Source of the DNA: Escherichia phage vB_EcoM_01
Length of the DNA: 64,000 bases
Sequence record: PP129558
Strand: one strand, 5' to 3'
Shown here: one piece after another, positions 2,704 to 64,000 of the stretch
Numbering within the stretch: the first letter of the stretch is position 1
How the letters are laid out: each line of letters opens with the position of its first letter
Translations under genes and position numbers: made by a program
Notes under the pieces: model-generated
Database searches by the model: none
The model's input: only the letters and a program-made list of their open reading frames with translations
What the model was told of the DNA's origin: nothing

Positions 2704-3141
2704 ATGTTNAAAGCTAATGCTGTTTACTGTTTCAAAAGTAAAGCTGCCTGTGAAGCTTTCTCTGTGATCTCGGATGAAAATTTCAAAATGGCAGCTTTGA
2801 TTGAAGGGTCTTGTTTTCGCGTCGAAGATGTTAGTGAATCAGGGTCTGTTTGCTCATTGACTTTATTGGACAGCGGGGATATTATTGAAGCTGGACAGTA
2901 TCCGTTCAGAAGTTGGGAGATATTGTTAGCTCGCGGAGAGCGTAACTTTTTTATGTGCGTGTCTGCGGGGGAAGTTGTGAAAGAAACTAAGGATGTTTCT
3001 GTTTACAATTCTGAATTTATAAGTTATAGTGAGTATCAACATCTGGAAGGCATTGTTGGTCACTTGTTATCTCTGATTGACATTGAATGTGACCTTCCTG
3101 AATCATTGAAAGAAGAGTTGAAAGCATTAGATCTGCTGTAA
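2704..3141 (+). CDS. Hypothetical protein (ambiguous bases near start)
   Basis: ORF; N bases at 2698-2709. Confidence 0.4.
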   Translation: MXKANAVYCFKSKAACEAFSVISDENFKMAALIEGSCFRVEDVSESGSVCSLTLLDSGDIIEAGQYPFRSWEILLARGERNFFMCVSAGEVVKETKDVSVYNSEFISYSEYQHLEGIVGHLLSLIDIECDLPESLKEELKALDLL

Positions 3142-3168
3142 TGTTTCGCACAACGAAAGGAGAATAAG

Positions 3169-3468
3169 ATGAATCTGACTGAACAGTTACGCCGTATTGC
3201 AAAAGAAGCTTCCTTCAACTTCCCTGTTGAAGAAGTGATCGAGACATGTTTTGCTGAAGCACGAGCGGGAAACTCTTCAAGAAATTTCACGCCATCTGAT
3301 TTTGGTCTGGATAATTCCCCTACCCACCCAGGGGCGATCTACAATCAGGTGAAGTGGATGGATGAAGCAGTAGCAATTCTTCGTGAGCGTGGGCTTATTG
3401 TTTATAAAGAAATGGATTTGAACGGGGCATACGAGTGGATCACTATTGATTGGTCGGAGGTGAAATAA
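3169..3468 (+). CDS. Hypothetical protein
   Basis: ORF with AAGGAG RBS. Confidence 0.45.
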   Translation: MNLTEQLRRIAKEASFNFPVEEVIETCFAEARAGNSSRNFTPSDFGLDNSPTHPGAIYNQVKWMDEAVAILRERGLIVYKEMDLNGAYEWITIDWSEVK

Positions 3469-3677
3469 TGGTTACTATCACATTGACAGTTACACAAGAG
3501 CAAGCAGAAGAATTACGTGATGCACTGGCATATATGGGACGCGCTTATTATATGCCTCACAAATCTCAAGATGTTTTTGCTACAGCCGTTGAGAAAGCTT
3601 TAAATAAATACCAAGAAACTCATGCCGTTCCTAAAGTATCAGCGGAAGAGTTTGGCACTTGGCACGAAGTTCACTGA
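3450..3677 (+). CDS. Hypothetical protein
   Basis: ORF with GGAGG RBS. Confidence 0.4.
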   Translation: MVGGEIMVTITLTVTQEQAEELRDALAYMGRAYYMPHKSQDVFATAVEKALNKYQETHAVPKVSAEEFGTWHEVH

Positions 3678-3687
3678 GGAGGTTTCG

Positions 3688-3921
3688 ATGAAAGGTAACA
3701 AGATGAAAGTTAATCAAGTGCCGAGCGCATACACTTTGTGGCTTGCACGAGCGTTACACCAGACGATCAAAAACCCTAAGAAGCCAATGAAGAGCGGGAA
3801 GAAGTTTATGTCTAAGGGCAAAACAACCTTTGGCTTCACTCGTATGTCTGTTAAGATGAAAAGACTGGGGTACAAGCCAAACTACGCTCGTTACCCTTCT
3901 GAATACAACTGGTTTGACTAA
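3688..3921 (+). CDS. Hypothetical Lys-rich basic protein
   Basis: ATG at 3688 preceded by GAGGAGG; table ORF 3622 trimmed to RBS-supported start. Confidence 0.4.
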   Translation: MKGNKMKVNQVPSAYTLWLARALHQTIKNPKKPMKSGKKFMSKGKTTFGFTRMSVKMKRLGYKPNYARYPSEYNWFD

Positions 3922-4019
3922 AAGGAGGAAGATTATGGCTACTTTTCAACAACTGAAAGATGTTTCACGTTTAGTAAGAAAAATCCGAGAAGCAGACGCT
4001 GCTGCTGTCTCTTATACAN

Positions 4020-4609
4020 NNNNNNNNNNNNNNNNNNNNNNNNNNNNNNNNNNNNNNNNNNNNNNNNNNNNNNNNNNNNNNNNNNNNNNNNNNNNNNNNN
4101 NNNNNNNNNNNNNNNNNNNNNNNNNNNNNNNNNNNNNNNNNNNNNNNNNNNNNNNNNNNNNNNNNNNNNNNNNNNNNNNNNNNNNNNNNNNNNNNNNNNN
4201 NNNNNNNNNNNNNNNNNNNNNNNNNNNNNNNNNNNNNNNNNNNNNNNNNNNNNNNNNNNNNNNNNNNNNNNNNNNNNNNNNNNNNNNNNNNNNNNNNNNN
4301 NNNNNNNNNNNNNNNNNNNNNNNNNNNNNNNNNNNNNNNNNNNNNNNNNNNNNNNNNNNNNNNNNNNNNNNNNNNNNNNNNNNNNNNNNNNNNNNNNNNN
4401 NNNNNNNNNNNNNNNNNNNNNNNNNNNNNNNNNNNNNNNNNNNNNNNNNNNNNNNNNNNNNNNNNNNNNNNNNNNNNNNNNNNNNNNNNNNNNNNNNNNN
4501 NNNNNNNNNNNNNNNNNNNNNNNNNNNNNNNNNNNNNNNNNNNNNNNNNNNNNNNNNNNNNNNNNNNNNNNNNNNNNNNNNNNNNNNNNNNNNNNNNNNN
4601 NNNNNNNNN
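4020..4609. other. Assembly gap (N run) with duplicated flanks and adapter remnants
   Basis: 3856-4006 repeats at 4630-4780; CTGTCTCTTATACA at 4007-4018 and ACACCACGTCTG at 4610-4621. Confidence 0.8.
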
Positions 4610-4708
4610 ACACCACGTCTGTTGTNNAGATGAAAAGACTGGGGTACAAGCCAAACTACGCTCGTTACCCTTCTGAATACAACTGGTTTGACTAAAAGGA
4701 GGAAGATT

Positions 4709-4885
4709 ATGGCTACTTTTCAACAACTGAAAGATGTTTCACGTTTAGTAAGAAAAATCCGAGAAGCAGACGCTGCTGTGCGGAATGCACTAACGCCAGC
4801 AGAGCGTGAAGATCTTGAAGAGGAGGTGAAAACAGCCGAGAATGCTTTTGCTGCGTATCTTTCAACACTGTATACAGGAGGTTAA
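4709..4885 (+). CDS. Hypothetical protein (5' end also present in duplicated flank at 3935)
   Basis: AAGGAGGAAG RBS then ATG; 59 aa. Confidence 0.4.
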   Translation: MATFQQLKDVSRLVRKIREADAAVRNALTPAEREDLEEEVKTAENAFAAYLSTLYTGG

Positions 4886-16485: not shown

Positions 16486-16495
16486 GGAGAAATAA

Positions 16496-16597
16496 TGGTT
16501 TCATTTATCGTAGGTGTAGTTGTAGGCTATCTTATTAACAAATATCAAGACGTTATCACGGCAAAAGTAAAAGACATTTTAGACTCATCTAAATAAT
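16496..16597 (+). CDS. Hypothetical tiny membrane peptide (33 aa)
   Basis: AAGGAG RBS; hydrophobic. Confidence 0.3.
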
Positions 16598-16648
16598 CTA
16601 TCAAAGCTGCATCTTCAATAGGTGCAGCCTTTTAAAAGGAGATATGGC

Positions 16649-16822
16649 ATGACTAAACGCACTGATTTTAAATGTATGCATTGTGGGAAATCTTTTGGGG
16701 ATCATCAAGCTCGCACATTCAACTGTCCACGTAAAGGTCGCGGAAATTTTAAAGGTTTTAATCCCGCACATGTTTATTCTCCAGATTACGATAAGCCAGA
16801 AGAAGAAAAATTTGTTATTTAA
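16649..16822 (+). CDS. Hypothetical small zinc-finger-like protein
   Basis: CMHCG ... CPRKG; ATG after AAAGGAG. Confidence 0.4.
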   Translation: MTKRTDFKCMHCGKSFGDHQARTFNCPRKGRGNFKGFNPAHVYSPDYDKPEEEKFVI

Positions 16823-16834
16823 TAAGGAGGTCAT

Positions 16835-17116
16835 ATGGAACTCGTTCAAGAATTGTATAATGCTTTAGGAGCAAAAGGAAAAGATTGGCCCGAACATGCG
16901 CTTATTGCTATAAGAGACTCCGATGGTGAGATTAAGTTTTCAAGTGTAAGTAAAGAGCACATCGTAGAAACAAAACTGGGTATTTACATGCGTGGAACTT
17001 ATTGCTTATTCAACACCAGAATGGTAGAAGCTCCTGTTATTGAAGATGGAACAAAAGATTGCCCCACAATCGTAACAAAAGCTGAATATGAGAAGTTTTT
17101 CTACGCTAAGGCTTGA
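16835..17116 (+). CDS. Hypothetical protein
   Basis: ORF with AAGGAGG RBS. Confidence 0.45.
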   Translation: MELVQELYNALGAKGKDWPEHALIAIRDSDGEIKFSSVSKEHIVETKLGIYMRGTYCLFNTRMVEAPVIEDGTKDCPTIVTKAEYEKFFYAKA

Positions 17117-25585: not shown

Positions 25586-26158
25586 TCAAATTATTAACGA
25601 AACCGCATGACTAAATCTTGGTTCAGATATAACCTCTGCTACAGTCACATATGTATCGTGCAGCCAAAAAGATTCTACTCTACAAACACAAATACCGTTG
25701 ATAATGAAATCTACACAGGCTTTATTATTTTCGCACACTTGTTGACTATAAACAACCCCTAAAGAGTCATAAAGTGATCTCACTGTTGCTACCATTTCAT
25801 CTGTTTCGTCTTCCTGTGAAACAAAGAAAACGAATACAGACAAGTTATTAGCGAAAGTATTGCTATTCTCTACTTCAACCGACTTACAAGGTAAAAAGGA
25901 GTAATATTTACCGTTAGGTATCAATTTCGCCTCAACCTGGTTAAGTATGCTTTGAGATGGTTTTGTTACATAAAAAAGATTTTCTGTTGGGTTTTCAACA
26001 TTACTCCTTACTATGCAACGAGTGGGGTTCGAAGGATCAAAAACATGATCGAAATCGACACACACAGGTAAGTTAACAACTTTAAACTTTTTGCTAAGAA
26101 TGCTTACTGCTGTAAAAATCAAACCAGCATTTATTTTGCCAGTGAAAGTTGAACGCAT
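25586..26158 (-). CDS. Hypothetical protein
   Basis: ATG after GAGGAG RBS; table ORF trimmed. Confidence 0.4.
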   Translation of the reverse strand: MRSTFTGKINAGLIFTAVSILSKKFKVVNLPVCVDFDHVFDPSNPTRCIVRSNVENPTENLFYVTKPSQSILNQVEAKLIPNGKYYSFLPCKSVEVENSNTFANNLSVFVFFVSQEDETDEMVATVRSLYDSLGVVYSQQVCENNKACVDFIINGICVCRVESFWLHDTYVTVAEVISEPRFSHAVSLII

Positions 26159-26172
26159 AACTACTCCTCGGA

Positions 26173-26367
26173 TCATTCTACCAAAGAGAATTCCGCCTCT
26201 TCCAGGTAGATTACAGACCTTGTTGCATGATATTTAACGCTCCAGAAATTACCTTCGCGCCGTAAAAGTATCTCATTCACATCAAGATTGCTTAGAAAAA
26301 CCATATAACTTAAAGCTTGTTGACGCGTTGAGAATTGTTTCTCTAAAAGTTCTTCTCCGCTCTGCAT
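26173..26367 (-). CDS. Hypothetical protein
   Basis: ORF. Confidence 0.35.
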   Translation of the reverse strand: MQSGEELLEKQFSTRQQALSYMVFLSNLDVNEILLRREGNFWSVKYHATRSVIYLEEAEFSLVE

Positions 26368-27792: not shown

Positions 27793-27837
27793 TATTAATC
27801 TCCTATGTTTAAGAAATGCCCCCGAAGGGGCAGTTTG

Positions 27838-28530
27838 TTAAATAGCGGTTCCTTCGAAATCCGCCACATTTACGAGATTAATATTTTCAGATTTAGAAGT
27901 CAAGTTGTTTTCTGCAACAGATTTTTCTTCAGTATCCGCCTCGTTACCTGCCACGTTACGAGGTTCTTCTTCACCGTAGGGATTACCGAATTTCAAAAGA
28001 TTGATCAATTCTTCTTTGGAGAAGTTTTCTAAATCATCGTCTGTTAATTCAATAATCTCGTCTTGTTCTTCAATAAATGTTTCACCACCAGAAAAAGCAT
28101 CTCGCTTTTTAGCTACTTCCATAGCCTGTTCTGGTGTTGCCCCTGCATCAAGAGCAGCTAAAGCAAAGTCTGACCCACTTCCTACCGCATAATATTCTTC
28201 ATCAATCGGATATGCACGTGTTGGGTTGTTACCTTCGTGCAGGAAAATACGTCCGTCTGGATGAACAACAAGTGCAATAAACTCTTCATCTTCTTTATCT
28301 GGATCAGAGTGAATCATCAAACCAGGGACAGCATCACGTGCTGCTTCGCACTGTAGATTTTGTTCAAACCATTGAAAGAAAGAAAGCACGGAGGTCAGAC
28401 GACCAGCACCACCTACAAGGTAATCTCCAATTTTTCGGACCTTTTTGAAATTAATAGAATCTACACGTCCACCAAAAGTTACCTTACCATCACTCAAAAT
28501 CTTATTTTTGGTTGCAATAATTGTCGTCAC
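27838..28530 (-). CDS. HslV-like N-terminal-nucleophile peptidase (proteasome beta-like) with acidic C-terminal extension
   Basis: MTTIIATKN (Thr after Met), KKVRK, GGAGR, AVGSGSDFALAA resemble HslV. Confidence 0.65.
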   Translation of the reverse strand: MTTIIATKNKILSDGKVTFGGRVDSINFKKVRKIGDYLVGGAGRLTSVLSFFQWFEQNLQCEAARDAVPGLMIHSDPDKEDEEFIALVVHPDGRIFLHEGNNPTRAYPIDEEYYAVGSGSDFALAALDAGATPEQAMEVAKKRDAFSGGETFIEEQDEIIELTDDDLENFSKEELINLLKFGNPYGEEEPRNVAGNEADTEEKSVAENNLTSKSENINLVNVADFEGTAI

Positions 28531-29033
28531 TATTCTTCCTCCTCTGTTAATGTTTTAAGAACCGCTTTCCCACCATTCACATATTTGCAGATGTATTCTA
28601 TCGCACGTAGTGTCTCTTTGTCAACAAAAATTTGATCAGACGTTGCGAGCGGGTTATTAAGAAGATCACTGCAATCACGAACAAGCAGTGCTTTCTTATT
28701 AAACAAATTACTTAAGAACAGTAACTTCGCCTCTTCTTCTGTTATGTGCAGAAGGCTAGGATCGGAGCCAGCTATTCCTATTATACAATCAAACAAGCTT
28801 TCTTTACTATCAGAAAGTTCTTGAAAATGGTTTAAAAGCCAATCTTCTCCTAGACACCAACATTTAAACATTTCCAGTTTATCTCGGAGGGTCATATTCT
28901 CTAAAGTAAGAGCAATCTCTTTTTCAATATGGTTTACACAAATTTGACGAAATTCGTTAGGTTTTACGAGTCCCGTTTGATAGCACTCATCTATACCGCT
29001 TCTTCCGATAGCTATTGTTGCTACACCCATCAA
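28530..29033 (-). CDS. Hypothetical protein
   Basis: ORF. Confidence 0.4.
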   Translation of the reverse strand: MMGVATIAIGRSGIDECYQTGLVKPNEFRQICVNHIEKEIALTLENMTLRDKLEMFKCWCLGEDWLLNHFQELSDSKESLFDCIIGIAGSDPSLLHITEEEAKLLFLSNLFNKKALLVRDCSDLLNNPLATSDQIFVDKETLRAIEYICKYVNGGKAVLKTLTEEEE

Positions 29034-29065: not shown

Positions 29066-29824
29066 TTAAATAAACACTTCAGTAATCAGTTTAGACAAAC
29101 GTCCACGTTTATTATCGTCCGTTGTCAGTTCAACGTATCCAATAAAATCTACAATTGGCTCACGAACACCTTCTTCATTTTCTGGATATAAAAGTTCCAA
29201 AATTTGATGCAGACCATTGCTACGTTTTTTAATTGCATATGTCTGGCGAACATCGCCTAATACAATAACATGCGTATTAATACCTGCACGTTCAATAAGA
29301 AGTTTAAGTGTTTCTGTTGACATAAGTTGTGCTTCGTCAATAATGACGATTGTATTATCCAGGGTGGCCCCCAACAAATAGTTAGGAATATTCAATTCGA
29401 TCTTACCTGATCCAATATCGTTTTCCAATTTGTTGGCTGTCATGAATTGCTGGAAAATACGTTTTGTAGATTCATAGTGTGCTGCTAGTTTATCTGTTTT
29501 ATCTCCAGACAAGAAACCAATCTGGTCATCTCCGACTTCAGTAGGGTTCTTGATAAAAAGTAGTTTACGGAAGTCTCCTGAACGAAGCATCTGCAAAGCT
29601 TTCCATAAAGCAACAGAGGTTTTACCAGTCCCTGCCGGAGCATTTACAACAGTCAGATCATTCCAAATCATGCTTTGAACAATCTTATTTTGGTCCCCTT
29701 CAGGCATAAATTCATCTAAACGGTAATCGTCATTACCTACCGCTTTTGCTGCATAACGGCTTTCAATCTTTGCTGAATTAGCCAGTTTCTGCCGTTGTGT
29801 TTTAGCTGCGGTTTTATTTCCCAT
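29066..29824 (-). CDS. phoH: PhoH-like P-loop ATPase
   Basis: Walker A APAGTGKTS; Walker B IIDEAQ; start set at internal ATG with AAAGGAG RBS. Confidence 0.75.
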   Translation of the reverse strand: MGNKTAAKTQRQKLANSAKIESRYAAKAVGNDDYRLDEFMPEGDQNKIVQSMIWNDLTVVNAPAGTGKTSVALWKALQMLRSGDFRKLLFIKNPTEVGDDQIGFLSGDKTDKLAAHYESTKRIFQQFMTANKLENDIGSGKIELNIPNYLLGATLDNTIVIIDEAQLMSTETLKLLIERAGINTHVIVLGDVRQTYAIKKRSNGLHQILELLYPENEEGVREPIVDFIGYVELTTDDNKRGRLSKLITEVFI

Positions 29825-29843
29825 AGTAGCACTCCTTTTAGAA

Positions 29844-29857
29844 GGGGCCGAAGCCCC
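29844..29857 (-). promoter_or_regulatory. Intercistronic GGGGCTTCGGCCCC hairpin, copy 2 of 3
   Basis: Identical to copies at 17803 and 36012. Confidence 0.5.
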
Positions 29858-29861
29858 TTTA

Positions 29862-30362
29862 TTAGTTGTAAGCATCTAAAGTTCCAGAAGTCAGAACTTT
29901 AATTACTCGTTCAGCACGGTTTGGCGTCTGGCTATACCATCGGCTTTTACGCATGTTTTTACCTGCTTGAGTATAATATGCATTGCTGATTAAAGTCAAG
30001 CTATTTTGAAACCCTTCAGCACCTTTTAACCCCAACTGGAAAACCATGTTGATTATTCCCAATTTACGAGTATCACTCACCTTATCATAGATTGGTGATA
30101 AGATAGCACTGTTTTTTATGTCTCTCTTCACTTTTGCAACATCATCAGCAAAGATTTGACGGGCTTCTTTTTCTGTGATAACTCCATTGGTCTTACGACC
30201 AAGAAGATTATCTAAGATTTGAATAGCCTTTGCTTTATCTTTTATTTTAGTCAGAAGGTGTCCTATGCCGACTGTCCAATAACCAAGATGGTCTTGATAA
30301 ACAGTAAGCTTCAGTCCTTCATCGACTCGTAGCATATCAAACTCATCTACTACTTTAGCCAT
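29862..30362 (-). CDS. T4-type lysozyme (endolysin, muramidase)
   Basis: LRVDEGLKLTVYQD ... GYWTVGIGHLLT and SRWYSQTPNRAERVI closely match T4 gene e lysozyme. Confidence 0.85.
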   Translation of the reverse strand: MAKVVDEFDMLRVDEGLKLTVYQDHLGYWTVGIGHLLTKIKDKAKAIQILDNLLGRKTNGVITEKEARQIFADDVAKVKRDIKNSAILSPIYDKVSDTRKLGIINMVFQLGLKGAEGFQNSLTLISNAYYTQAGKNMRKSRWYSQTPNRAERVIKVLTSGTLDAYN

Positions 30363-30524: not shown

Positions 30525-30785
30525 TTACTCCGCAATTTGAGCCATGAGATCACGCAGTTCGGTAAAACCGCCTACGTATGTTACCTCCCCGTTCACTTCA
30601 GACAGAATTTGTGGAAATGTGCGTGGAGGAACTCCGGTAAGATCAACAACTGTTTTAGTCATTGATTCTAAATCATAGTCTTGGTCAAGACTTAAATATT
30701 CAAACTGTTTATTGCGCATGGTTAATAGTTGTTTTGACATTTCACAAAATTGACAGTTAGGTTTACCAAAAATTACAAATTCCAT
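30525..30785 (-). CDS. Glutaredoxin (NrdH/Grx-like redoxin)
   Basis: CQFC active site, TFPQI, GGF motifs. Confidence 0.75.
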   Translation of the reverse strand: MEFVIFGKPNCQFCEMSKQLLTMRNKQFEYLSLDQDYDLESMTKTVVDLTGVPPRTFPQILSEVNGEVTYVGGFTELRDLMAQIAE

Positions 30786-31627
30786 TACCTCTCCTTATTA
30801 AGTAATACTGCTAAAGACTGTTCAATACCTTTATTTAAATCTGATTTTGTAAGATAGTGACTGGTTACTAGTTGTGACTTCACCGGACGTGCTGCTGGAG
30901 CATTATAGGTTGAAGCTGATACCGCCGATATCTTAACAGGTTCTGGCATCTGTGTCAAGATCTTTTCCGCAAACTCCGCCCAAGAAATAAGATGGCTTCC
31001 TGCAAAATGGTAAGTCTTAACAGACCTTGACCAACCTGTTTTTAATACTTCAAAAATAGCTTCTGCTAAATCTGGAGCATATGTTGGACAAGAGAACTGA
31101 TCAGCAACAATAATAAAATCACGTTGTCCATCATTATAGCGAGACAACATGGTTTTTAGAAAGTTATTTCCAAATTCACTATATACCGAGGCTGTTCGAA
31201 TAATATATGCATTTGGATTAACTCCTCGCACCATTTTTTCACCAAGTTCTTTCGTATACCCATAATTGTTTATTGGGTTAGGTGTAGTATCTTCAAAAAT
31301 AGGATGAGAATAATTAAAAATATAGTCTGTAGAAATATGCACAAAATCAATTCTAAGTTTGCTGCACACTGCTGCAATGTTTGCAGGTCCATACGCATTA
31401 ACAGCCAAAGCAGTAGCAAAATCCTGTTCAGCTTTATCTACAGCCGTATAAGCGGCGCAATTAATAACGCCATCTACATAATCTTCAACAATAGCGTTTC
31501 GCACAGCTTCAAAATTTGTAATATCTACACGTTCTTTAGGATAAATTAAAGATACATTTGAAGGAGCCACTTTACGTAAAGCTTGTCCCAGTTGTCCATT
31601 ACCACCCAATACCAGATATGTTAGCAT
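30785..31627 (-). CDS. rmlD: dTDP-4-dehydrorhamnose reductase
   Basis: N-terminal GGNGQLG Rossmann motif, YGYTK (YxxxK), last in rml gene order. Confidence 0.75.
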   Translation of the reverse strand: MLTYLVLGGNGQLGQALRKVAPSNVSLIYPKERVDITNFEAVRNAIVEDYVDGVINCAAYTAVDKAEQDFATALAVNAYGPANIAAVCSKLRIDFVHISTDYIFNYSHPIFEDTTPNPINNYGYTKELGEKMVRGVNPNAYIIRTASVYSEFGNNFLKTMLSRYNDGQRDFIIVADQFSCPTYAPDLAEAIFEVLKTGWSRSVKTYHFAGSHLISWAEFAEKILTQMPEPVKISAVSASTYNAPAARPVKSQLVTSHYLTKSDLNKGIEQSLAVLLNKER

Positions 31628-32187
31628 ACACCCTCGCTACGTAACTGTTGAAAAGATTTAGCCATTGCATCTTTTGTTGATAGAATAGGTTTAAAACCTT
31701 CGTCAAAAATCATATCGAAGCCCCAATCGATCCCTATATCAGGATCATCCCAACGTAAACTTTGTTCACTAGAAGGGTCGTATGGAGTTGTGCATTTGTA
31801 TTCAAAGATAGCATCCATACTCAAAACTATAAAACCATGTGCCAAACCAGGTGGAAGCCAAAACTGCGTATGGTGCCGTGCACGAAGAACAACACCGTCC
31901 CAAGCACCGTAAGTTGGACTATCTTTACGTAAATCTACAGCGAAATCCAAGACTTCTCCGCTTACACAACGAACAAGCTTACCTTGCGGGTTATTTGTTT
32001 GAAAGTGCATTCCTCGCAAAACACCGAAGTTTGATTTAGACATGTTATCTTGAACGAAAGTTTGTCTACCAATGATATCTTCGTATTTTTGTTCATTATA
32101 TGTTTCTAAAAAGAAACCACGATCATCTTTATAAACATCTGGTTTGATAATTACCGCACCTTCAATTTTTGTTTTTTCTACTTTCAT
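31621..32187 (-). CDS. rmlC: dTDP-4-dehydrorhamnose 3,5-epimerase
   Basis: [15 protein letters not shown] motif; ATGA start/stop overlap with rmlA. Confidence 0.7.
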
Positions 32188-33062
32188 TTTCTCTCCGCTA
32201 ATTTGAGTAGGTATTGCCCGTACTCTGTTTTCTTCAGTGAGTTTCCATGATATACCAAAGTCTCTAAAGAAATCCACCCTTTTTTGAAAGCAATTTCTTC
32301 CAGGCACGCAATCTTCAATCCTTGACGGTTCTCAATAGTCTGCACGAATTGACCAGCTTCCATCAGACTGGCGTGTGTTCCTGTGTCAAGCCAAGTAAAT
32401 CCTCGTCCGAGAACTTCCACTTGTAACTTCCTGTCTTCGAGGTAGCTGCGATTGATATCTGTGATCTCCAGTTCTCCACGCGCGGAAGGGGTTACTTCTA
32501 ATGCACGTTGAACAACAGAGTTATCATAGAAATACAAACCTGTGACAGCATAATCTGATTTAGGATTTTCAGGTTTCTCTTCAATAGAAATAGCTTGACG
32601 ATTACTCCCAAATTCAACCACACCAAATCGTTCAGGATCTTTCACCAAATACCCGAAGATACAAGCTCCGCCACAAACATCTACCATCTCACTGGCGTTA
32701 ATCAGTAGTTTACCAAAGCTTTGTCCGAAGAATAGGTTGTCACCTAAAATAAGAGCAACAGAGTCTTCTCCGATAAAATCTTTACCGATGATGAAAGCGT
32801 CCGCAAGACCTCGTGGCTCGGATTGGATTGCGTAAGTGAGTTTTATCCCAAACATAGACCCATCTCCGAGAAGATACTCAAAGTCTTCCTGATCGCCTGG
32901 TGTGGTGATGATTAAGATATCCTTAATGTCAGCCAACATCAATACCGATAAAGGGTAGTAGATCATGGGTTTGTCATACACAGGGAGCAATTGCTTGCTC
33001 ACACTGCGTGTTACCGGATGAAGGCGGGTTCCACTTCCTCCCGCCAAAATAATACCTTTCAT
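32184..33062 (-). CDS. rmlA: Glucose-1-phosphate thymidylyltransferase
   Basis: [19 protein letters not shown]-terminus. Confidence 0.85.
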
Positions 33063-37034: not shown

Positions 37035-39275
37035 TCACATCTTGCAAGCTTCACAACCACCATCAGAATCTTCTTGTGCTAAAGAGTCTGCTGATTTTGT
37101 TCTACTATTAAGGTAATACAATGATTTGCCACCCAGTCTAGCAAAATTCAAAATAAACTGCATCTCAGCTTTCACGGATAAACGTCCACCTACCAATTTA
37201 GAATAATCTAGCCAAGAATCACAAGAAATTCCTTGGTCAGTAAACTTGGTAAAGATACCATACATTTCTGCAAGGTCTTTAGCCGGAGTATCCCAGGCAG
37301 ATTGGTAGAACATTTTCAGTTTTTCGTAGTCTGGAACAATAAATAATACACTACCTTTCTGACTTTGTTTATACATAATGGTATCACGAACAGGATACAG
37401 AGAGTTAGTAGTATTGCTTACCAAACTGCTGGACTCATTAGGTGCAATAGCAGCCAATACACTGTTACGGATACCACCTTGTTCAATGATTTCAGCACGT
37501 AAGCCTTCCCAGTCCATTTTAAGATCAAAATTACCGATACTATCTACTGTTTTAGCATAAGTGTCAATTGGTAGCCAACCTTGAGGCCATTTGGTCTTAT
37601 CGATCCATTCTGCATTACCTTTTTCCTTAGCCAGACGCAGAGAGGCTTTTGCCAACCAGAAGTAATGACGTTCTGCAAGTTCATGCATTAATTTTTTAGC
37701 ATAAGCATCTGAATAATTTACAAAATTACTTGCCAAGTAATGCGCTAAGTTTGTAATGCCTACACCAATAGATCTACGTGCTTTAGCAGTTATTTCGTTA
37801 TGTTTAAATGGATAATCCATTGTTTCAATAACGTTGTCAATTGTCAATACAGTGTAGTATGCAACATCTTCATATTCTTCAGGTAATACACGACCAGCAA
37901 CAATAGAAGATAAGAAGCATAAAGCCAATTCTTGATCTTCTGTATTCTCACCAGTAAAGAGATCCGGCATACTGTGGAAAGCTTTAGTTGGTAAGAAGAT
38001 CTCTTGACACAGGTTTGATTGATACACCGTATCCAGGAAAGGTGTATGGTTGTTAACGTTGTCAGCAAAGAACATGTAAATACGTCCTGTTTCTGCACGT
38101 TGAACAATAATCTCTGTCAGAAGATCACGAGCCTTAACAAATTTTTTCTTAATGCGACGACGGCTTACTTTGTCATAAACTGCATCAAACTCTTCTTCAC
38201 TTTTATACAAAGCTTCATAAAGTTCTGGAGCATCATCACAACTAACTAACATCCAATCTTCGTTTTTTGCTGCTCGACGCAAGAATGAACGGTTAACAAC
38301 AATAGAATAATCCAGTTTGTCTACTCGTTTATCTATAGGTGTTGTTGGATTCTTCAGTCGAATCAGATCGTCGAAGTCTGGTTCAAGTATGGTAAAGGTA
38401 ACTGTAGCACTACCTCCACGGCTTGCTTGCTTCGAAGCTCCAACACTATCTTCCATCCATTTCAGATATGGAAGAAGACCACCATGAATAATACGATTAT
38501 TCTTAACACCTTGACCTGTGGCACGAGTTTGAAGATTAACACCAATACCTGCGTTATTTAACGTATACTCATGAGCTAAGTAATTAGCAATGGCTAAAGA
38601 CTCTGCTGTATCGTCTGCGCGGAATAAACAACAAGACGCACTTCCTTTGATTGGAGTTCGTAGAGTTGTCAGATACGGCGATGGCAGATTAATCTTAAGA
38701 TCGCTAACATAAGTATAAAGTTTTTTAATATCTTCTATACGGCGTTCTTTTGGTTGGATCTCCATAACCTTCATTGCGATACCAATGAAAAGAAACTGTG
38801 GAGACTCATGCACAACATCGTTTACTGCATCTCGAATAAGATATTTATCTACCATCTGACGTAAAACAGAATAACCATAAGTTAGATTTTTATTATGCTT
38901 TACAATCTTACCGATTTCTTTGATCTCTTCATCAGTATAATCCATTTTAGCCCAATGTCCACGTTCTACCATATCATGATAAAAGGTATTCAGTGAAGGG
39001 ATACTGTGGTATCCCCCATGAGCCTGTTTGTAAATCATACCCAGAAGAAGTCTTCCTGCCATATCACTGTAAGCTTGTGTTTTCTTGTCAATACACGCTG
39101 CAATCATTGCTTTATGCAGATCACGTGTAGACACACCGTCATAACACCGCTTCACAGCTTCTAATTCAATTTCAGACCAGTTTAGTTTACCTGCTGCAAA
39201 TTCAGACCACTTGCGAAGTTTTTCTGGATTAAACTCCTCTGTCTTACCGTTAGATTTAGTTACAAAACGAATCAA
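37035..39275 (-). CDS. nrdA: Ribonucleotide reductase large (alpha) subunit, class I
   Basis: 746 aa; multiple conserved Cys including C-terminal pair; context with nrdB and glutaredoxin. Confidence 0.8.
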   Translation of the reverse strand: MIRFVTKSNGKTEEFNPEKLRKWSEFAAGKLNWSEIELEAVKRCYDGVSTRDLHKAMIAACIDKKTQAYSDMAGRLLLGMIYKQAHGGYHSIPSLNTFYHDMVERGHWAKMDYTDEEIKEIGKIVKHNKNLTYGYSVLRQMVDKYLIRDAVNDVVHESPQFLFIGIAMKVMEIQPKERRIEDIKKLYTYVSDLKINLPSPYLTTLRTPIKGSASCCLFRADDTAESLAIANYLAHEYTLNNAGIGVNLQTRATGQGVKNNRIIHGGLLPYLKWMEDSVGASKQASRGGSATVTFTILEPDFDDLIRLKNPTTPIDKRVDKLDYSIVVNRSFLRRAAKNEDWMLVSCDDAPELYEALYKSEEEFDAVYDKVSRRRIKKKFVKARDLLTEIIVQRAETGRIYMFFADNVNNHTPFLDTVYQSNLCQEIFLPTKAFHSMPDLFTGENTEDQELALCFLSSIVAGRVLPEEYEDVAYYTVLTIDNVIETMDYPFKHNEITAKARRSIGVGITNLAHYLASNFVNYSDAYAKKLMHELAERHYFWLAKASLRLAKEKGNAEWIDKTKWPQGWLPIDTYAKTVDSIGNFDLKMDWEGLRAEIIEQGGIRNSVLAAIAPNESSSLVSNTTNSLYPVRDTIMYKQSQKGSVLFIVPDYEKLKMFYQSAWDTPAKDLAEMYGIFTKFTDQGISCDSWLDYSKLVGGRLSVKAEMQFILNFARLGGKSLYYLNSRTKSADSLAQEDSDGGCEACKM

Positions 39276-39291
39276 CTTCTCCTCCCTATTA

Positions 39292-39546
39292 TTAATGCAT
39301 ATTCAAAACATCTACATCATAACCGAACTTCATTTCATTAAAAAGTCCATTAGCATATAGAAAACCTTCAAAATGAGTTATGTCATCAAACCCTTTTGCT
39401 TTTGCTCGACGGTCTGCTTCTTGTCTTTTAGGAGATAAACGTTTTGAAGTGTCTAGAATTACAGTTACATTACAACCAACAGTTTCATCAAAATAGACTT
39501 CGATTTCACAGCCTTCATATTTATTATCAGTCATTGTCCCTCTCAT
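39292..39546 (-). CDS. Hypothetical protein
   Basis: ORF. Confidence 0.35.
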   Translation of the reverse strand: MRGTMTDNKYEGCEIEVYFDETVGCNVTVILDTSKRLSPKRQEADRRAKAKGFDDITHFEGFLYANGLFNEMKFGYDVDVLNMH

Positions 39547-39953
39547 TGATTAGTATCATCTGCTTTCGCAGGATCATAAGAGTTACCGAAATCATCCATC
39601 TTAATATGTGACGCACCCCAACCTGTAAATTCTTCATCACCAAAATGAAAAATATCATTTTCTTGGTAGATTCGTTTAAAACCACAATTAGGTGAAACAG
39701 GGAAAGTGAAAAGCGTTGTATTTGCAAACACTACTCGCTTATCGTTATTGCTTCGGATATTCACATTACGCTCAACAGAATAGTGTGAATCTTCAGCCAT
39801 ACCCAGCATTACAAGCGACGCTCTAATAACAGCATTTTGTTTCTCGTGTGGGATATTGCCATTGTGTTTATTTGATTCTAGTTTCCAGATAGGGGTAGAC
39901 ATTACAGTAGACATGCTTACGGTAGCCCAAGTTGTAGTATTTACTAATGACAT
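39543..39953 (-). CDS. Hypothetical protein in nucleotide-metabolism cluster
   Basis: ATG after AAGGAG RBS; no confident motif. Confidence 0.4.
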   Translation of the reverse strand: MSLVNTTTWATVSMSTVMSTPIWKLESNKHNGNIPHEKQNAVIRASLVMLGMAEDSHYSVERNVNIRSNNDKRVVFANTTLFTFPVSPNCGFKRIYQENDIFHFGDEEFTGWGASHIKMDDFGNSYDPAKADDTNQ

Positions 39954-40051
39954 ATTTTCTCCTTCATTTTGAATGGGAGGACTCACCTCCTCCCAGTATT
40001 GTGCTATATTATACTAAAACTAATACTAAAGTCAATAATTATTTAAACAGA

Positions 40052-41050
40052 TCACCATTTAGTATGATTTGTTAAAAGTTGACGATGTTGAATCCAGCCT
40101 TTGAAATTGCCAGACCAAAACTTACCATTACGATCTACATGGGTAATACCTGGTTCCCAAGAGTTAAAATCCCAAGGAGCATTGATAAACAAATCTTCAA
40201 AACAGTTCTCTCCATATTGTTCGCATGTTTCTTGCATTGGAGTCGCTTGATGTTCAAACGGAGAAGCATGAACCTTGCGCCCAGTCAGCAAACGACCATA
40301 GATATCTAAAGCTTTATCTTTAGTTGCATTTAAACGACGATAGCTAACCTGTGCACAACACGAAGCTGAAATAGCTTTGGCTTCTTCCAAAGTAAGCACA
40401 ACAACTTCTCCAGATTCATCTTGAACGTAGTATCCACCAAAAACAAAATGATCGTCACCTTCTGTGCCAATATTATCATAGAAATGGTCTACATAAGGTG
40501 TGTGCCATTGCCCTGGTTTCAGCACTTCTGGTGTAGATTCTTCATACTCTTTGTGCATCTCTTTAGCCAAAGCTTCGATAGTAGGATCGGCTTCTTTGTC
40601 ATCACGTAGCCACCAGAAATTTTCATATTCTGTTGCTGTCAGAACTGTTTTAATTCGTTGGAAAGGTTCCAGAAGACGGTTTGCAACTTGTTTGTGGTAC
40701 CCTGCCAAAGAGAATTCTTCTGCAAAACGTGCTGCACTAAGCGCGGCAAGATCCCACCACTCTTGAGCAGTATAACCTGCATCAATAAGAGCGTCATGAT
40801 CAACACCTTTATCCTGCATACCAGGTTGGTTAGCCCCAAAACGATAAGGACGAGCAGGTTGATTTCGCACCATTTCAATCAGTGTTTTAACAGGTATAGC
40901 ACGGCTAGAAGCAGCATTACGACTGAACAGGCGGTGAGTCATCAATTCTGAATGAATAATACGTGGATATTCTAGTTCAAAAGTTACAATCTCTTTTCCG
41001 TCTTCAGTGATGGAATGCGCAATAATACTAGCCGAAATCTGTTTTGTCAT
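40052..41050 (-). CDS. thyX: ThyX-like flavin-dependent thymidylate synthase (variant THR in place of RHR)
   Basis: ELMTHRLFSRNAASSRAIP resembles ThyX RHRxxxxxxxS signature; 332 aa is longer than typical. Confidence 0.55.
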   Translation of the reverse strand: MTKQISASIIAHSITEDGKEIVTFELEYPRIIHSELMTHRLFSRNAASSRAIPVKTLIEMVRNQPARPYRFGANQPGMQDKGVDHDALIDAGYTAQEWWDLAALSAARFAEEFSLAGYHKQVANRLLEPFQRIKTVLTATEYENFWWLRDDKEADPTIEALAKEMHKEYEESTPEVLKPGQWHTPYVDHFYDNIGTEGDDHFVFGGYYVQDESGEVVVLTLEEAKAISASCCAQVSYRRLNATKDKALDIYGRLLTGRKVHASPFEHQATPMQETCEQYGENCFEDLFINAPWDFNSWEPGITHVDRNGKFWSGNFKGWIQHRQLLTNHTKW

Positions 41051-41059
41051 TTTTTCTCC

Positions 41060-41668
41060 TTAGTTTTTAAAATTGTTCAAAGTGTTAAAAACATCCAAAC
41101 ATGTTAGCCACTGATCTTCTAAACCTGTGATCACAACATTTGGTTTTTTCTTTAGTTCTTCTAGATGGTTATCTTTATAAGGCGTATTAAAATATATTTT
41201 AACCACTTCATCTGGAAAATATAGTAGGTTATCAGCCCTGTCATCTATTGCTATATCACAAGGCAATAAATATTTTTCTTTCGTAGCAAAAAAGCCGTTG
41301 CCAGATCCTTTGCTAAAATCAATCGTATCTAATGTTCTTAAAACATGCTTATGTTTAGAACTTAAGTGACCACCTTTTGTCACACTTGCGATCAAAAGAT
41401 TGCTACCTTTTCTTGAAACATACTTTAAGAAATCTGGCATACCTGTAACAAAACCCATTGTATCATAGAGATGAGGATTATCCAGAAATCCGTAAGGATC
41501 TATGTTGAACTCTTCCCTGAAACCAGGAAAATAGTTGGTAAGATCGTAATCTGCATTTTTTGTGAATGTGTCGATTTTAACACCAAGTCCACTAATCTTA
41601 TTCAACCATTCTAACCAAGCAACATCTAATGGAGCCACAACTAAATCCCAATCACATACTATCTGCAT
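41060..41668 (-). CDS. HAD-superfamily phosphatase, possible 5'-deoxyribonucleotidase
   Basis: N-terminal VCDWDLV (DxD); context. Confidence 0.45.
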   Translation of the reverse strand: MQIVCDWDLVVAPLDVAWLEWLNKISGLGVKIDTFTKNADYDLTNYFPGFREEFNIDPYGFLDNPHLYDTMGFVTGMPDFLKYVSRKGSNLLIASVTKGGHLSSKHKHVLRTLDTIDFSKGSGNGFFATKEKYLLPCDIAIDDRADNLLYFPDEVVKIYFNTPYKDNHLEELKKKPNVVITGLEDQWLTCLDVFNTLNNFKN

Positions 41669-60011: not shown

Positions 60012-62087
60012 GTGGCAAAGAAAAAGGCAGCAGGTAGTTTAGCTGGAGTAGATATTGAAGTAAAGGCTCAACCAGGTAAACAGACTCTTGCAATGGATTT
60101 AATGCCAGAAGTTATGATTTATGGTGGTGCCGCTGGATGTGTTTCGGCTGAAACGGAATATCTTACAAAAGATGGTTGGAGGCAGATTAGTGAATATTCG
60201 GGAGAGGATATTTACCAATACAATCCTAAGAATAAGCGTTTAGAATTGGTAACACCTTATTTTGTAGAATATGATTTAAATGGAGATAACCTATACAGAA
60301 TAACAAATGGTGTAGGATTGTTCCAAGAACTTAGTATGGAACACCGTTTTGTATTCTATAAGAAAAAGAAATCAAAGAAACATTTCGAGATTCTTGTAGG
60401 AGATCTTATTGCATTACAGCAAATAGGAAAACCCCTGCAAGGTTATGTAGAAAATCCATTCGGTAAACGTGTTCCTTTTAACATACCTGGTAAAAAGAGC
60501 ACTTACTTAAAAATACACGAGGTTATTTCAACAGATGATAAGAAATATTGTTTTGAGACTCCAAGCAGCTATATTGTCTTTAGACGTGGCGATCACTGCT
60601 TCGTTACTGGGAATAGCGGCAAGTCTCGTCTGCTATTGCTGAAAGCTTTAAAATACGCCTACAAAGACCCTTTGTTTGGTGGAATACTTTTCCGTAAGAA
60701 CACCACTGCTCACCGTAAACCAGGTGGTCTGTTTACAGAAGCAAAACGTTTGTATCTTCCTTTACAACCACACGTAAAAGAAAGTACAATGGATATCATT
60801 TTTGAAGCCACTGGTGGTGGAACCCTCAAATTTGACCATTTGGAAAATGATAACGTAACAGCAGAAACAAACCATCAGGGTACACAGTATTCAATGGTAG
60901 GTTTTGACGAGTTAACCCACTTCACACAATATGAAATGCTCTATCTTCTGGGACGTATGCGTTCAGAGTCAGAAACAAGTTTCATGTTGTGCACATGTAA
61001 CCCTGACGCAGATAGTTGGGTTTTGAATTGGGTGTTACCTTATCTTGATGAGGGTGGTTATCCTAGAGAAGATATGTGTGGTAAACAAAAATATTTCATC
61101 ATTGTTAACGATGAACCTGTTTTTGCTGACACACCTGAAGAACTGAAAGAAAAATATCCAGAAAACTGTTTCATGGAAAACCCTAATACAGGGGAGACAG
61201 TTGTTATTGAACCACAAACTTTCGTATTTATTGGTGGGACAATATTTGATAACCCAGAACTCATTAGGCTTAACCCTAATTACCTAGCACAGCTTAAATC
61301 ACAAACAGCGATCAAAAGAGCACAGCTTCTGGACGGTTGTTGGTTTGCACGTATCCAGAAAGAATCTTTCTTTCAACGTGAATGGTTACATAAAATATCT
61401 TATAAAGATGTTCCTAACAATCTTAAACTAATGCGAGCATGGGATAAAGCTGTTTCAGTTCCTACAGAAACTTACCGTTATCCAGACTATACAACATCTG
61501 TCAAAATGGGTAAAGATCAAGATGGTAATATCTACATCTTTGGCGACTATGATTATGATGCTGTGGATGAGAAAAGTAAAATTTTCGGAAGGTTTCGAAG
61601 ACTACCTGGGGAAAGGGATAATTTGATTCTAAATCAATGTAAGATTGATGGACCAGAAGTTACAGTAGTGCTTCCTAAAGACCCATCTGGTGCTGGGACA
61701 ATAGAATACACAGAGTCTGCAAAGAAACTTATTCTAGAAGGTTTTGTTGTTAAACCAGATGCTATGCCAGGTAACAAGAAAAAGCTTCAGCGTTTTATGC
61801 CTTTTAGTAGTGCGTGTCAAAACGGCTTTGTTTATATTGTTGAAGATTCTTTCCCTAATGTGGAAACTTTAACCCACTTTTATAAAGAATTGGAATCTTT
61901 CAATGGTGAAAGATCTACAGCCACTATTAAAGATGACATTCCCGATGCTGCTGCCTCTTGTTTTAATACTCTGTCAAAAGAGAATACTTTCAAAGCAGTA
62001 GCAATCCCTACAACAACAAATGCTCCTACAGGATACAGTAGAATGAACAGCGGATTTCACCAACCGTATAGTGTCCGTAAAAGATAA
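60012..62087 (+). CDS. terL: Terminase large subunit (ATPase + nuclease), interrupted by a probable mini-intein
   Basis: Walker B MVGFDE; P-loop GGAAG / SGKS split by ~159-aa insert; GTG start after AGGAGGG. Confidence 0.75.
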   Translation: MAKKKAAGSLAGVDIEVKAQPGKQTLAMDLMPEVMIYGGAAGCVSAETEYLTKDGWRQISEYSGEDIYQYNPKNKRLELVTPYFVEYDLNGDNLYRITNGVGLFQELSMEHRFVFYKKKKSKKHFEILVGDLIALQQIGKPLQGYVENPFGKRVPFNIPGKKSTYLKIHEVISTDDKKYCFETPSSYIVFRRGDHCFVTGNSGKSRLLLLKALKYAYKDPLFGGILFRKNTTAHRKPGGLFTEAKRLYLPLQPHVKESTMDIIFEATGGGTLKFDHLENDNVTAETNHQGTQYSMVGFDELTHFTQYEMLYLLGRMRSESETSFMLCTCNPDADSWVLNWVLPYLDEGGYPREDMCGKQKYFIIVNDEPVFADTPEELKEKYPENCFMENPNTGETVVIEPQTFVFIGGTIFDNPELIRLNPNYLAQLKSQTAIKRAQLLDGCWFARIQKESFFQREWLHKISYKDVPNNLKLMRAWDKAVSVPTETYRYPDYTTSVKMGKDQDGNIYIFGDYDYDAVDEKSKIFGRFRRLPGERDNLILNQCKIDGPEVTVVLPKDPSGAGTIEYTESAKKLILEGFVVKPDAMPGNKKKLQRFMPFSSACQNGFVYIVEDSFPNVETLTHFYKELESFNGERSTATIKDDIPDAAASCFNTLSKENTFKAVAIPTTTNAPTGYSRMNSGFHQPYSVRKR
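60138..60614 (+). other. Probable mini-intein (159 aa) in terminase Walker A motif
   Basis: Starts with Cys (CVSAETEYL), ends ...FVTGN followed by Ser; removal restores GGAAGSGKS. Confidence 0.55.
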
Positions 62088-63847: not shown

Positions 63848-64000
63848 ATGGAACTCAATAAAGATACACTGTGGGAACTCTTCAAAACCTTCGCTGGTTT
63901 TAAAGAGAATTCTGAATCCCAACAAGATTCTATACCATCTCAAAAACCTGAAACTCTAGTCAAACAAAATAAATTTGATGAAGAAAAGATGCAGGTTATT
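63848..64000 (+). CDS. Hypothetical protein, 3'-truncated at window end
   Basis: ATG after AAGAGG RBS; ORF open to window edge. Confidence 0.4.
   Translation, partial: MELNKDTLWELFKTFAGFKENSESQQDSIPSQKPETLVKQNKFDEEKMQVI

Follow-up and report, generated by a model that had tools for sequence, protein, structure and literature searches.

The stretch of DNA analyzed here, 64,000 nucleotides from Escherichia phage vB_EcoM_01 (record PP129558) and referred to below as the window, carries a gene for a peptidase of the proteasome/HslV superfamily. Enzymes of this type are normally dependent on ring ATPases. The questions at this locus are which class of peptidase the phage encodes and with which partner, if any, it would work. 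The coding sequence occupies 27838..28530 on the minus strand and is complete, with 230 codons and a stop, filling the noted interval exactly. It starts with GTG, preceded at a spacing of 7 nt by the strong Shine-Dalgarno sequence GAGGAGG (28538..28544, minus strand), and the first base of this GTG doubles as the final base of the TAG that ends the upstream ORF (TAGTG junction, 1-nt overlap). A terminator-like GC hairpin followed by a T-rich run, recognized by its match to the consensus, lies 5 nt past the peptidase stop (27817..27832, minus strand). Some GenBank records annotate a 'repeat_region' inside the gene; our repeat scan gave no more than a short match at chance level there, and we discarded this feature. 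A sigma-70-like site with near-consensus sequence (28595-28624, minus strand; TTGACA, 18 nt, TAGAAT; 11 of 12 positions matching the consensus) is found within the 3' end of the upstream, gp174-like ORF, about 60 nt 5' of the peptidase start. Judged by this consensus match, the peptidase gene could be transcribed separately from the genes 5' of it.

The source region is 99.6-99.7% identical to genomes of Phapecoctavirus (phAPEC8, tuntematon and others), a genus of the Stephanstirmvirinae comprising E. coli myoviruses of about 150 kb, and the phage of the window is assigned to this genus. The public protein with 99.6% identity to the peptidase of the window is phAPEC8 gp175, labeled 'peptidase HslV family' in RefSeq; other submitters chose 'ATP-dependent protease subunit HslV', 'putative proteasome component' or 'putative 20S proteasome'. 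Homologues were found in 233 phage records, 106 of them from Escherichia phages, 36 from Vibrio, 28 from Caulobacter, 15 from Aeromonas and 10 each from Klebsiella and Rhizobium phages, the remainder from others. Window and phAPEC8 coordinates are about 6346 apart at the peptidase gene and about 2639 apart at the terminase gene (window 60012-62087), which indicates that the phage of the window is about 3.7 kb longer than phAPEC8 between these two genes. In a 267-aa database protein of Escherichia phage VEcB, a PhoH Pfam domain is joined to a segment that is 74% identical to 55% of the peptidase. This protein is probably an artefact of a frameshift or deletion by which the PhoH and peptidase genes were fused and gp174 was skipped.

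Membership of the superfamily was supported by several independent comparisons. The Pfam model PF00227 (Proteasome) was matched with 25.6 bits, above its gathering cut-off of 22.4, and PHROG 1040 ('peptidase HslV family') with an E-value of 1.6e-63 across residues 1-229, so that the C-terminal tail also belongs to the phage family model. In searches of the PDB the best solved relatives by sequence were HslVs: 1m4y was found at 4.9e-9 with the single sequence and at 1.7e-14 with a family profile of 59 sequences, and the 20S subunit beta5 followed the HslVs at 3e-10 in the profile search. A search with a fragment of the core alone (residues 101-158) gave nothing informative in the PDB. When the family profile was aligned by hhalign to E. 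coli HslV and to human beta5 (reference sequences checked against PDB 1e94 and 1iru_L), the probabilities were 96.2% (E 2e-9) and 95.3% (E 2e-8), respectively. The AF2 model of the whole peptidase had a mean pLDDT of 83.9, mostly above 90 in the core, which adopts the alpha-beta-beta-alpha sandwich of Ntn hydrolases. Foldseek comparison of this model yielded HslV 6kui at 1.8e-10, BPH 5ovs at 6.5e-10 and archaeal and eukaryotic beta subunits at about 1e-9; overall the matches to HslV, BPH and 20S beta ranged from 1e-10 to 1e-8, with a probability of 1.00 and target-normalized TM scores of 0.55-0.69. Structure prediction and comparison with HslV, the check proposed at the outset, therefore places the protein in the proteasome/HslV fold. 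By profile and fold the peptidase is about equally near to HslV, BPH and 20S beta; in fold, 20S beta subunits (human beta5 is an example) and the Thiobacillus BPH (5ovs) match it no worse than HslV does. Heptameric rings are formed by BPH and by beta subunits; the phage peptidase was modeled here as a monomer.

The original prediction of an HslV-like, proteasome-type peptidase with an acidic tail is thus borne out by the Pfam, PHROG and PDB matches, by the fold and by the tail composition described below. All motifs quoted in its support were found again: MTT at the N-terminus, KKVRK at residues 29-33, GGAGR at 41-45 and AVGSGSDFALAALDAG at 115-130. The homology of the N-terminal part to HslV stood, while its length, given as about 170 aa, had to be shortened: based on the AF2 model, the invariant columns, hhalign and Foldseek, the catalytic core comprises residues 1-155 (28066..28530, minus strand).

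The claim of a functional relative of HslV depended on conservation of the catalytic Thr, Lys and Ser, and this was assessed in 59 relatives with 26-99% identity. Thr1, Asp17, Lys33 and the serine of the GSG motif (proteasome-beta numbering) were invariant. In the numbering of the phage protein, T2, T3, I4, D14, K30 and G117-S118-G119 were found in 59 of 59 sequences, and G41, A42, G43, D144, G148 and G149 were conserved in at least 90% of them. S147 is present in the peptidase of the window and in the consensus RDxFSGG; it falls below 90% owing to a few distant, tail-less relatives that differ at this position. The equivalents in proteasome beta subunits are Thr1 for T2, Asp17 for D14, Lys33 for K30, Gly47 for G43, Ser129 for S118, Asp166 for D144 and Ser169 for S147, and Gly170 was matched as well. 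In the hhalign alignments TTI, KKVR and GSG were superimposed on E. coli HslV, and RDAFSGG on the RDAYSGG motif of beta5, which holds Asp166, Ser169 and Gly170. At this last position the phage peptidase resembles beta5 and differs from E. coli HslV, which has GDICIYT.

Every homologue starts with (A/G)TG ACN ACN ATH, that is, with M-T-T-I. Methionine aminopeptidase removes the initiator Met when Thr follows, and E. coli HslV matures in this way. From the start sequence and this specificity, the methionine aminopeptidase of the host should expose Thr1 without any propeptide. Taken together with the conserved catalytic set, this makes it very probable that the phage peptidase is catalytically active, as far as can be judged from sequence. 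Two adjoining PHROG-1040 genes were observed in Aeromonas phage 2L372D (gp210 and gp211; positions 3432-3983 and 4001-4885 of locus L001), one encoding a tail-less paralogue of 183 aa with an MTC start and with GSG changed to GCG, the other a tail-bearing protein of 294 aa. The sequences of this pair hint at a two-subunit or heteromeric version of the enzyme in Plateaulakevirus.

An active site of this type need not act by degradation. An archaeal proteasome homologue, the connectase, is reportedly a ligase (PMC7980362), and with this precedent the phage protein might be a connectase-like, sequence-specific ligase or transpeptidase, or might process one phage or host protein at a specific site. 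New assemblies and functions are also considered possible for the recently described homologues (Fuchs et al., PMC8665760). The absence of helix H2 and the additional C-terminal module, both described below, do not conform to the classical design of such chambers. Against this reading, the active site is the hydrolase set of proteasome beta subunits, including D166, S169 and G170, and nothing in the present analysis points to a specific substrate. We consider non-degradative chemistry very improbable and continue with a peptidase that hydrolyzes its substrates.

The next question was whether this peptidase is an HslV in the strict sense. It is HslV-like, yet it is no HslV orthologue. With bacterial HslV (ClpQ) it shares the M-T-T start, the lack of a propeptide, the positions of Thr1, Asp17, Lys33 and GSG and a similar size. 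It differs in the absence of H2 and of an hslU neighbor, in the presence of a C-terminal tail and in its scores with the HslV equivalogs of NCBIfam, neither of which reached the cut-off: NF003964 gave 32.2 bits against a cut-off of 137, and TIGR03692 gave 31.4 against 157.75. In the AF2 model a single long helix (residues 45-67) leads into a loop (68-84) that takes the place of HslV helix H2, a strand (85-89) comes next, and the core ends at the strand 151-155, without S12 and H5. In a 142-aa homologue from a Caulobacter phage the segment that corresponds to loop 68-84 is absent altogether. The pocket of HslV that receives the activating C-terminus of HslU is lined by F54 and F57 on H1, A79 and K80 on H2, and Q114 (numbering of Ec/Hi HslV; PMC6429459), with H2 providing one half of it. 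Since H2 is missing in the model, A79 and K80 would be missing too, and the predicted pocket for the HslU tail is incomplete. F54 and F57 have hydrophobic counterparts (L/F) in the phage peptidase, and these retained H1 residues may, by sequence, still allow residual docking of HslU.

These features bear on the possibility that the phage hijacks an unfoldase of its host, the peptidase replacing or supplementing HslV on HslU, or on another AAA+ ring, and redirecting ATP-dependent degradation. The E. coli host encodes HslU, and any ATP-dependent degradation would need a host enzyme, as the phage has no unfoldase of its own. That HslVs are the nearest solved relatives by sequence, and that the H1 hydrophobics are retained, also speaks for such a hijack. 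It is weakened by the loss of H2 with A79 and K80, by scores far under the equivalog cut-offs, by the equal proximity of BPH and 20S beta in fold and by the separate clustering of PPH/RPC proteins in the survey of Fuchs et al. (PMC8665760). On balance we regard it as unlikely, and an HslU-independent peptidase is the reading pursued in the following.

The survey just cited (Fuchs, Alva and Lupas 2021, Bioinformatics; PMC8665760) described the proteasome homologues PPH and RPC of phages and their hosts as a cluster of their own. Helix H2 is absent from both, the C-terminal domains of RPC have no match among known structures, PPH measures about 140 aa, and RPC is listed in proteobacterial genomes only (PMC8665760). 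The phage peptidase fits this clade, in which we place it by its features. It comes from a tailed phage, lacks H2, has a compact core without S12 and H5 and carries a C-terminal extension of the RPC type. As in PPH/RPC, the core is of the compact group-I kind without a propeptide and keeps Thr1, Asp17, Lys33 and Gly47, and as in RPC the extension matches no known structure. It departs from the described PPH/RPC proteins in its larger core (about 155 aa against about 140 in PPH), in the loop at the H2 position, in a tail of 75 aa and, compared with the proteobacterial RPC, in being borne by a phage. Compared with 20S beta subunits and BPH, it is much smaller and has no propeptide, alpha-type partner or C-terminal S12/H5 elements. 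A scan of 1.84 billion representative sequences with the family profile returned 65 clusters with E-values of 1e-30 or lower. Nearly all of them bear a tail (183-350 aa), and they grade into proteins of PPH size (137-155 aa) at 1e-25 to 1e-31.

The tail was then considered separately. It had been described as a D/E-rich extension of about 60 aa; its acidity was confirmed, and its length had to be corrected to 75 aa (residues 156-230). With 27% D/E and a net charge of -15 it ranks in the top 0.4% of 75-aa segments from the long ORFs of the window. Relatives extend 44-224 residues past the core, in all cases with a negative net charge (-2 to -27). Both the AF2 model and the alignment delimit a conserved proximal element at residues about 160-182 (IELTDDDLENFSKEELINLLKFG; 27985..28053, minus strand), with two short predicted helices at 164-169 and 172-181 (pLDDT 85-91). 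The corresponding block, EL-T-x-E-x4-[FML][ST][KR]E[EQ]L[LIV]xx[LMI], is kept from coliphages to homologues in Aeromonas and Vibrio phages with just 33-35% overall identity. As its first 25 or so residues form a conserved helical element, the tail is more than acidic filler. The distal part (residues 183-230; 27841..27984, minus strand) is acidic, of low complexity and predicted to be disordered, the pLDDT falling below 50 at residues 190-214. Its sequence and length differ among relatives, some of which carry Cys- and Trp-rich or other domains instead, and the extreme C-termini are unrelated. A profile of the tail alone had no significant match in the PDB (best E 0.24). We therefore describe the tail as bipartite, with a conserved, predicted helical hairpin followed by a variable, acidic and predicted disordered segment. 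We rejected the idea that the tail imitates the HslU C-terminus or an HbYX motif in cis, as the C-termini are not conserved. Fuchs et al. (PMC8665760) pointed out that in these homologues the C-termini are oriented away from the presumed rings and could be sites of interaction.

A strongly acidic tail in all relatives could also mean that the protein is a decoy or inhibitor. Phages are known to make acidic proteins that mimic DNA, and the peptidase or its tail might titrate or poison a host factor by forming mixed rings with HslV, by binding HslU or by presenting a nucleic-acid mimic to a basic DNA-binding protein. Conservation of the catalytic set over 26-99% identity, which indicates selection on catalysis, argues against this role, as do the lack of conservation in the distal tail sequence and the absence of any match to a defense or anti-defense model; the PADLOC models of both kinds matched neither the peptidase nor its two neighbors. 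We find the decoy distinctly improbable and retain an active enzyme with a tail that serves it.

The statement that no HslU-like ATPase is adjacent holds at the locus and across the whole phAPEC8 genome annotation: the complete annotation contains no Clp, Lon, HslU or FtsH-type protein, and no hslU was found at the related phage loci that carry the peptidase. The only AAA protein in phAPEC8 is gp014, which we rejected as a partner on two grounds: it is similar to clamp loaders and DnaC, and its occurrence is phylogenetically uncorrelated with that of the peptidase. The gp014 family occurs mainly in large phages of Gram-positive hosts (Enterococcus, Bacillus, Staphylococcus), and the peptidase in phages of Vibrio, Caulobacter, Aeromonas and Rhizobium. 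In phAPEC8 this AAA-type ATPase is followed by gp013, a CapR-domain/HNH endonuclease (positions 39005-41404 of locus L007, outside the window).

The immediate neighbors offer two further candidates. The peptidase gene is the last of a minus-strand block that comprises genes for glutaredoxin, a T4-type lysozyme, a PhoH-like protein, the 167-aa ORF and the peptidase. The 167-aa ORF (28530..29033, minus strand), a homologue of phAPEC8 gp174 assigned to PHROG 14834, shares the start/stop overlap with the peptidase gene. Its product is predicted to be all-alpha (pLDDT 92) and has no informative structural neighbor. Homologues of gp174 (hmmsearch E 1e-31 to 1e-83) lie directly 5' of the peptidase, or one small ORF apart, in every Stephanstirmvirinae-like locus sampled, and one of these loci again shows a 1-nt overlap. 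At the Aeromonas, Vibrio and Caulobacter phage loci that carry the peptidase, gp174 was not found. Gene order and the 1-nt overlap make gp174 a candidate cofactor of the peptidase in Stephanstirmvirinae. In Vibrio phage 1.193.O a gene for an IS605 OrfB/TnpB-type transposase (positions 2767-3867 of locus L002; Pfam OrfB_IS605, Cas12f1-like TNB) is situated just 5' of the HslV-like gene, at the place that gp174 takes in Stephanstirmvirinae.

The PhoH-like P-loop ATPase (29066..29875, minus strand) is encoded by the first gene of the conserved block PhoH/gp174/peptidase. This arrangement, with the 167-aa ORF in its position, is kept in Stephanstirmvirinae loci, and in Aeromonas and Vibrio phages PhoH is found 3-6 genes 5' of the peptidase. 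One could thus imagine that PhoH, alone or together with gp174, serves as energy-dependent partner in a new ATPase-peptidase pair. PhoH, however, matches P-loop families of the PhoH/SF1-helicase type and not AAA+ unfoldases, and in Caulobacter phage CcrPW no annotated PhoH lies within 4 kb of the peptidase gene. The same loci also have lysozyme, glutaredoxin and DprA in common, so that the linkage probably reflects inherited gene order. We give this pairing very little credence, and an enzyme acting without HslU, with gp174 as candidate helper, stays the preferred reading.

Other genes of the region were noted in passing. Adjoining the glutaredoxin (30525-30785) and lysozyme (29862-30362) genes are dTDP-rhamnose genes on the minus strand at 30785-33062, encoding an RmlD-like reductase (30785-31627), the RmlC epimerase (31621-32307) and the RmlA thymidylyltransferase (32184-33062). 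Elsewhere in its genome phAPEC8 has four glycosyltransferases, which together with the rhamnose genes suggests a sugar modification directed by the phage. At 25586-26176 (minus strand) an ORF of 196 aa falls into PHROG 4806, 'histidyl tRNA synthetase', of which phAPEC8 has two (gp181 and gp042). Far too short for HisRS, it probably represents a HisRS-like or anticodon-binding-type fragment or a mislabeled family.

A C-terminal extension on a phage protease also evokes head maturation, as C-terminal targeting segments are known from prohead proteases. With this precedent, the peptidase could be a capsid-maturation or virion-packaged protease whose tail is a capsid-targeting signal. But phAPEC8 already has a conventional prohead protease of the S78/XkdF type, directly after the portal gene (Pfam E 1.4e-11; PHROG head maturation protease), and on this ground a prohead-protease role was rejected. 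The peptidase gene, moreover, is grouped with nucleotide-metabolism genes on the other strand, at a distance of about 30 kb from the head module. A role in the capsid is therefore extremely unlikely. As to annotation, this gene after the portal, phAPEC8 gp117 (positions 16487-16966 of locus L006), called 'DNA methyltransferase' in RefSeq, is a head-maturation protease of the Peptidase_S78_2/XkdF type (Pfam E 1.4e-11; PHROG 3017); the RefSeq label is probably a propagated mis-annotation. Its homologue in the window would start near 63850 and run past the window end.

The explanation that we favor as a whole, and consider fairly probable, is an active threonine peptidase ring of the PPH/RPC type that is independent of HslU, uses its tail as a docking or selectivity module and has gp174 as a cofactor. 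The peptidase would be expressed as part of the gene module for nucleotide metabolism and replication in a lytic, phAPEC8-like coliphage, and methionine aminopeptidase of the host would expose Thr1 with no propeptide to remove. It would then self-assemble into a ring-shaped chamber, as its relatives do, and might, independently of HslU, act on peptides or on proteins that are unfolded or loosely structured. The tail would point outward from the ring and either recruit basic partners or substrates or regulate access. That relatives exchange the distal part for other domains supports a module for recruitment or selectivity, and the acidity of the tail suggests that the partners are basic. The product of the overlapping upstream gene, gp174, may assist as a lineage-specific cofactor. 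In the absence of an activator, free HslV has very weak protease activity (PMC6429459), and by this measure the unassisted phage enzyme might be nearly inert. In the literature on phage HslV and PPH proteins we found no experimental work and only mentions in genome announcements, and a paper on jumbo phages remarks that HslV genes occur without HslU.

In summary, the gene and its family assignment were already public through the RefSeq and PHROG labels and the PPH/RPC survey, and the analysis does not discover a gene. It adds a sharper class for the peptidase, which is of the PPH/RPC type and no HslV orthologue, as well as the bipartite anatomy of the tail and the linkage to the overlapping gp174. 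A more daring version, which we hold to be unlikely, would be a viral 'mini-proteasome' that is independent of any unfoldase, in which an H2-less ring, with its conserved helical hairpin and an exchangeable acidic or domain-bearing tail as a built-in arm for recruiting substrates and, in Stephanstirmvirinae, with the help of the all-alpha gp174, removes specific basic host proteins during takeover, such as nucleoid, defense or translation factors. If true, it would represent a new regulatory logic for proteasome-like proteases. A widespread phage clade with an intact active site that has lost the helix for HslU docking and has a modular tail of its own is a natural test case for the targeting of a proteolytic chamber without an unfoldase, and the peptidase may reveal what a lytic phage needs to degrade.
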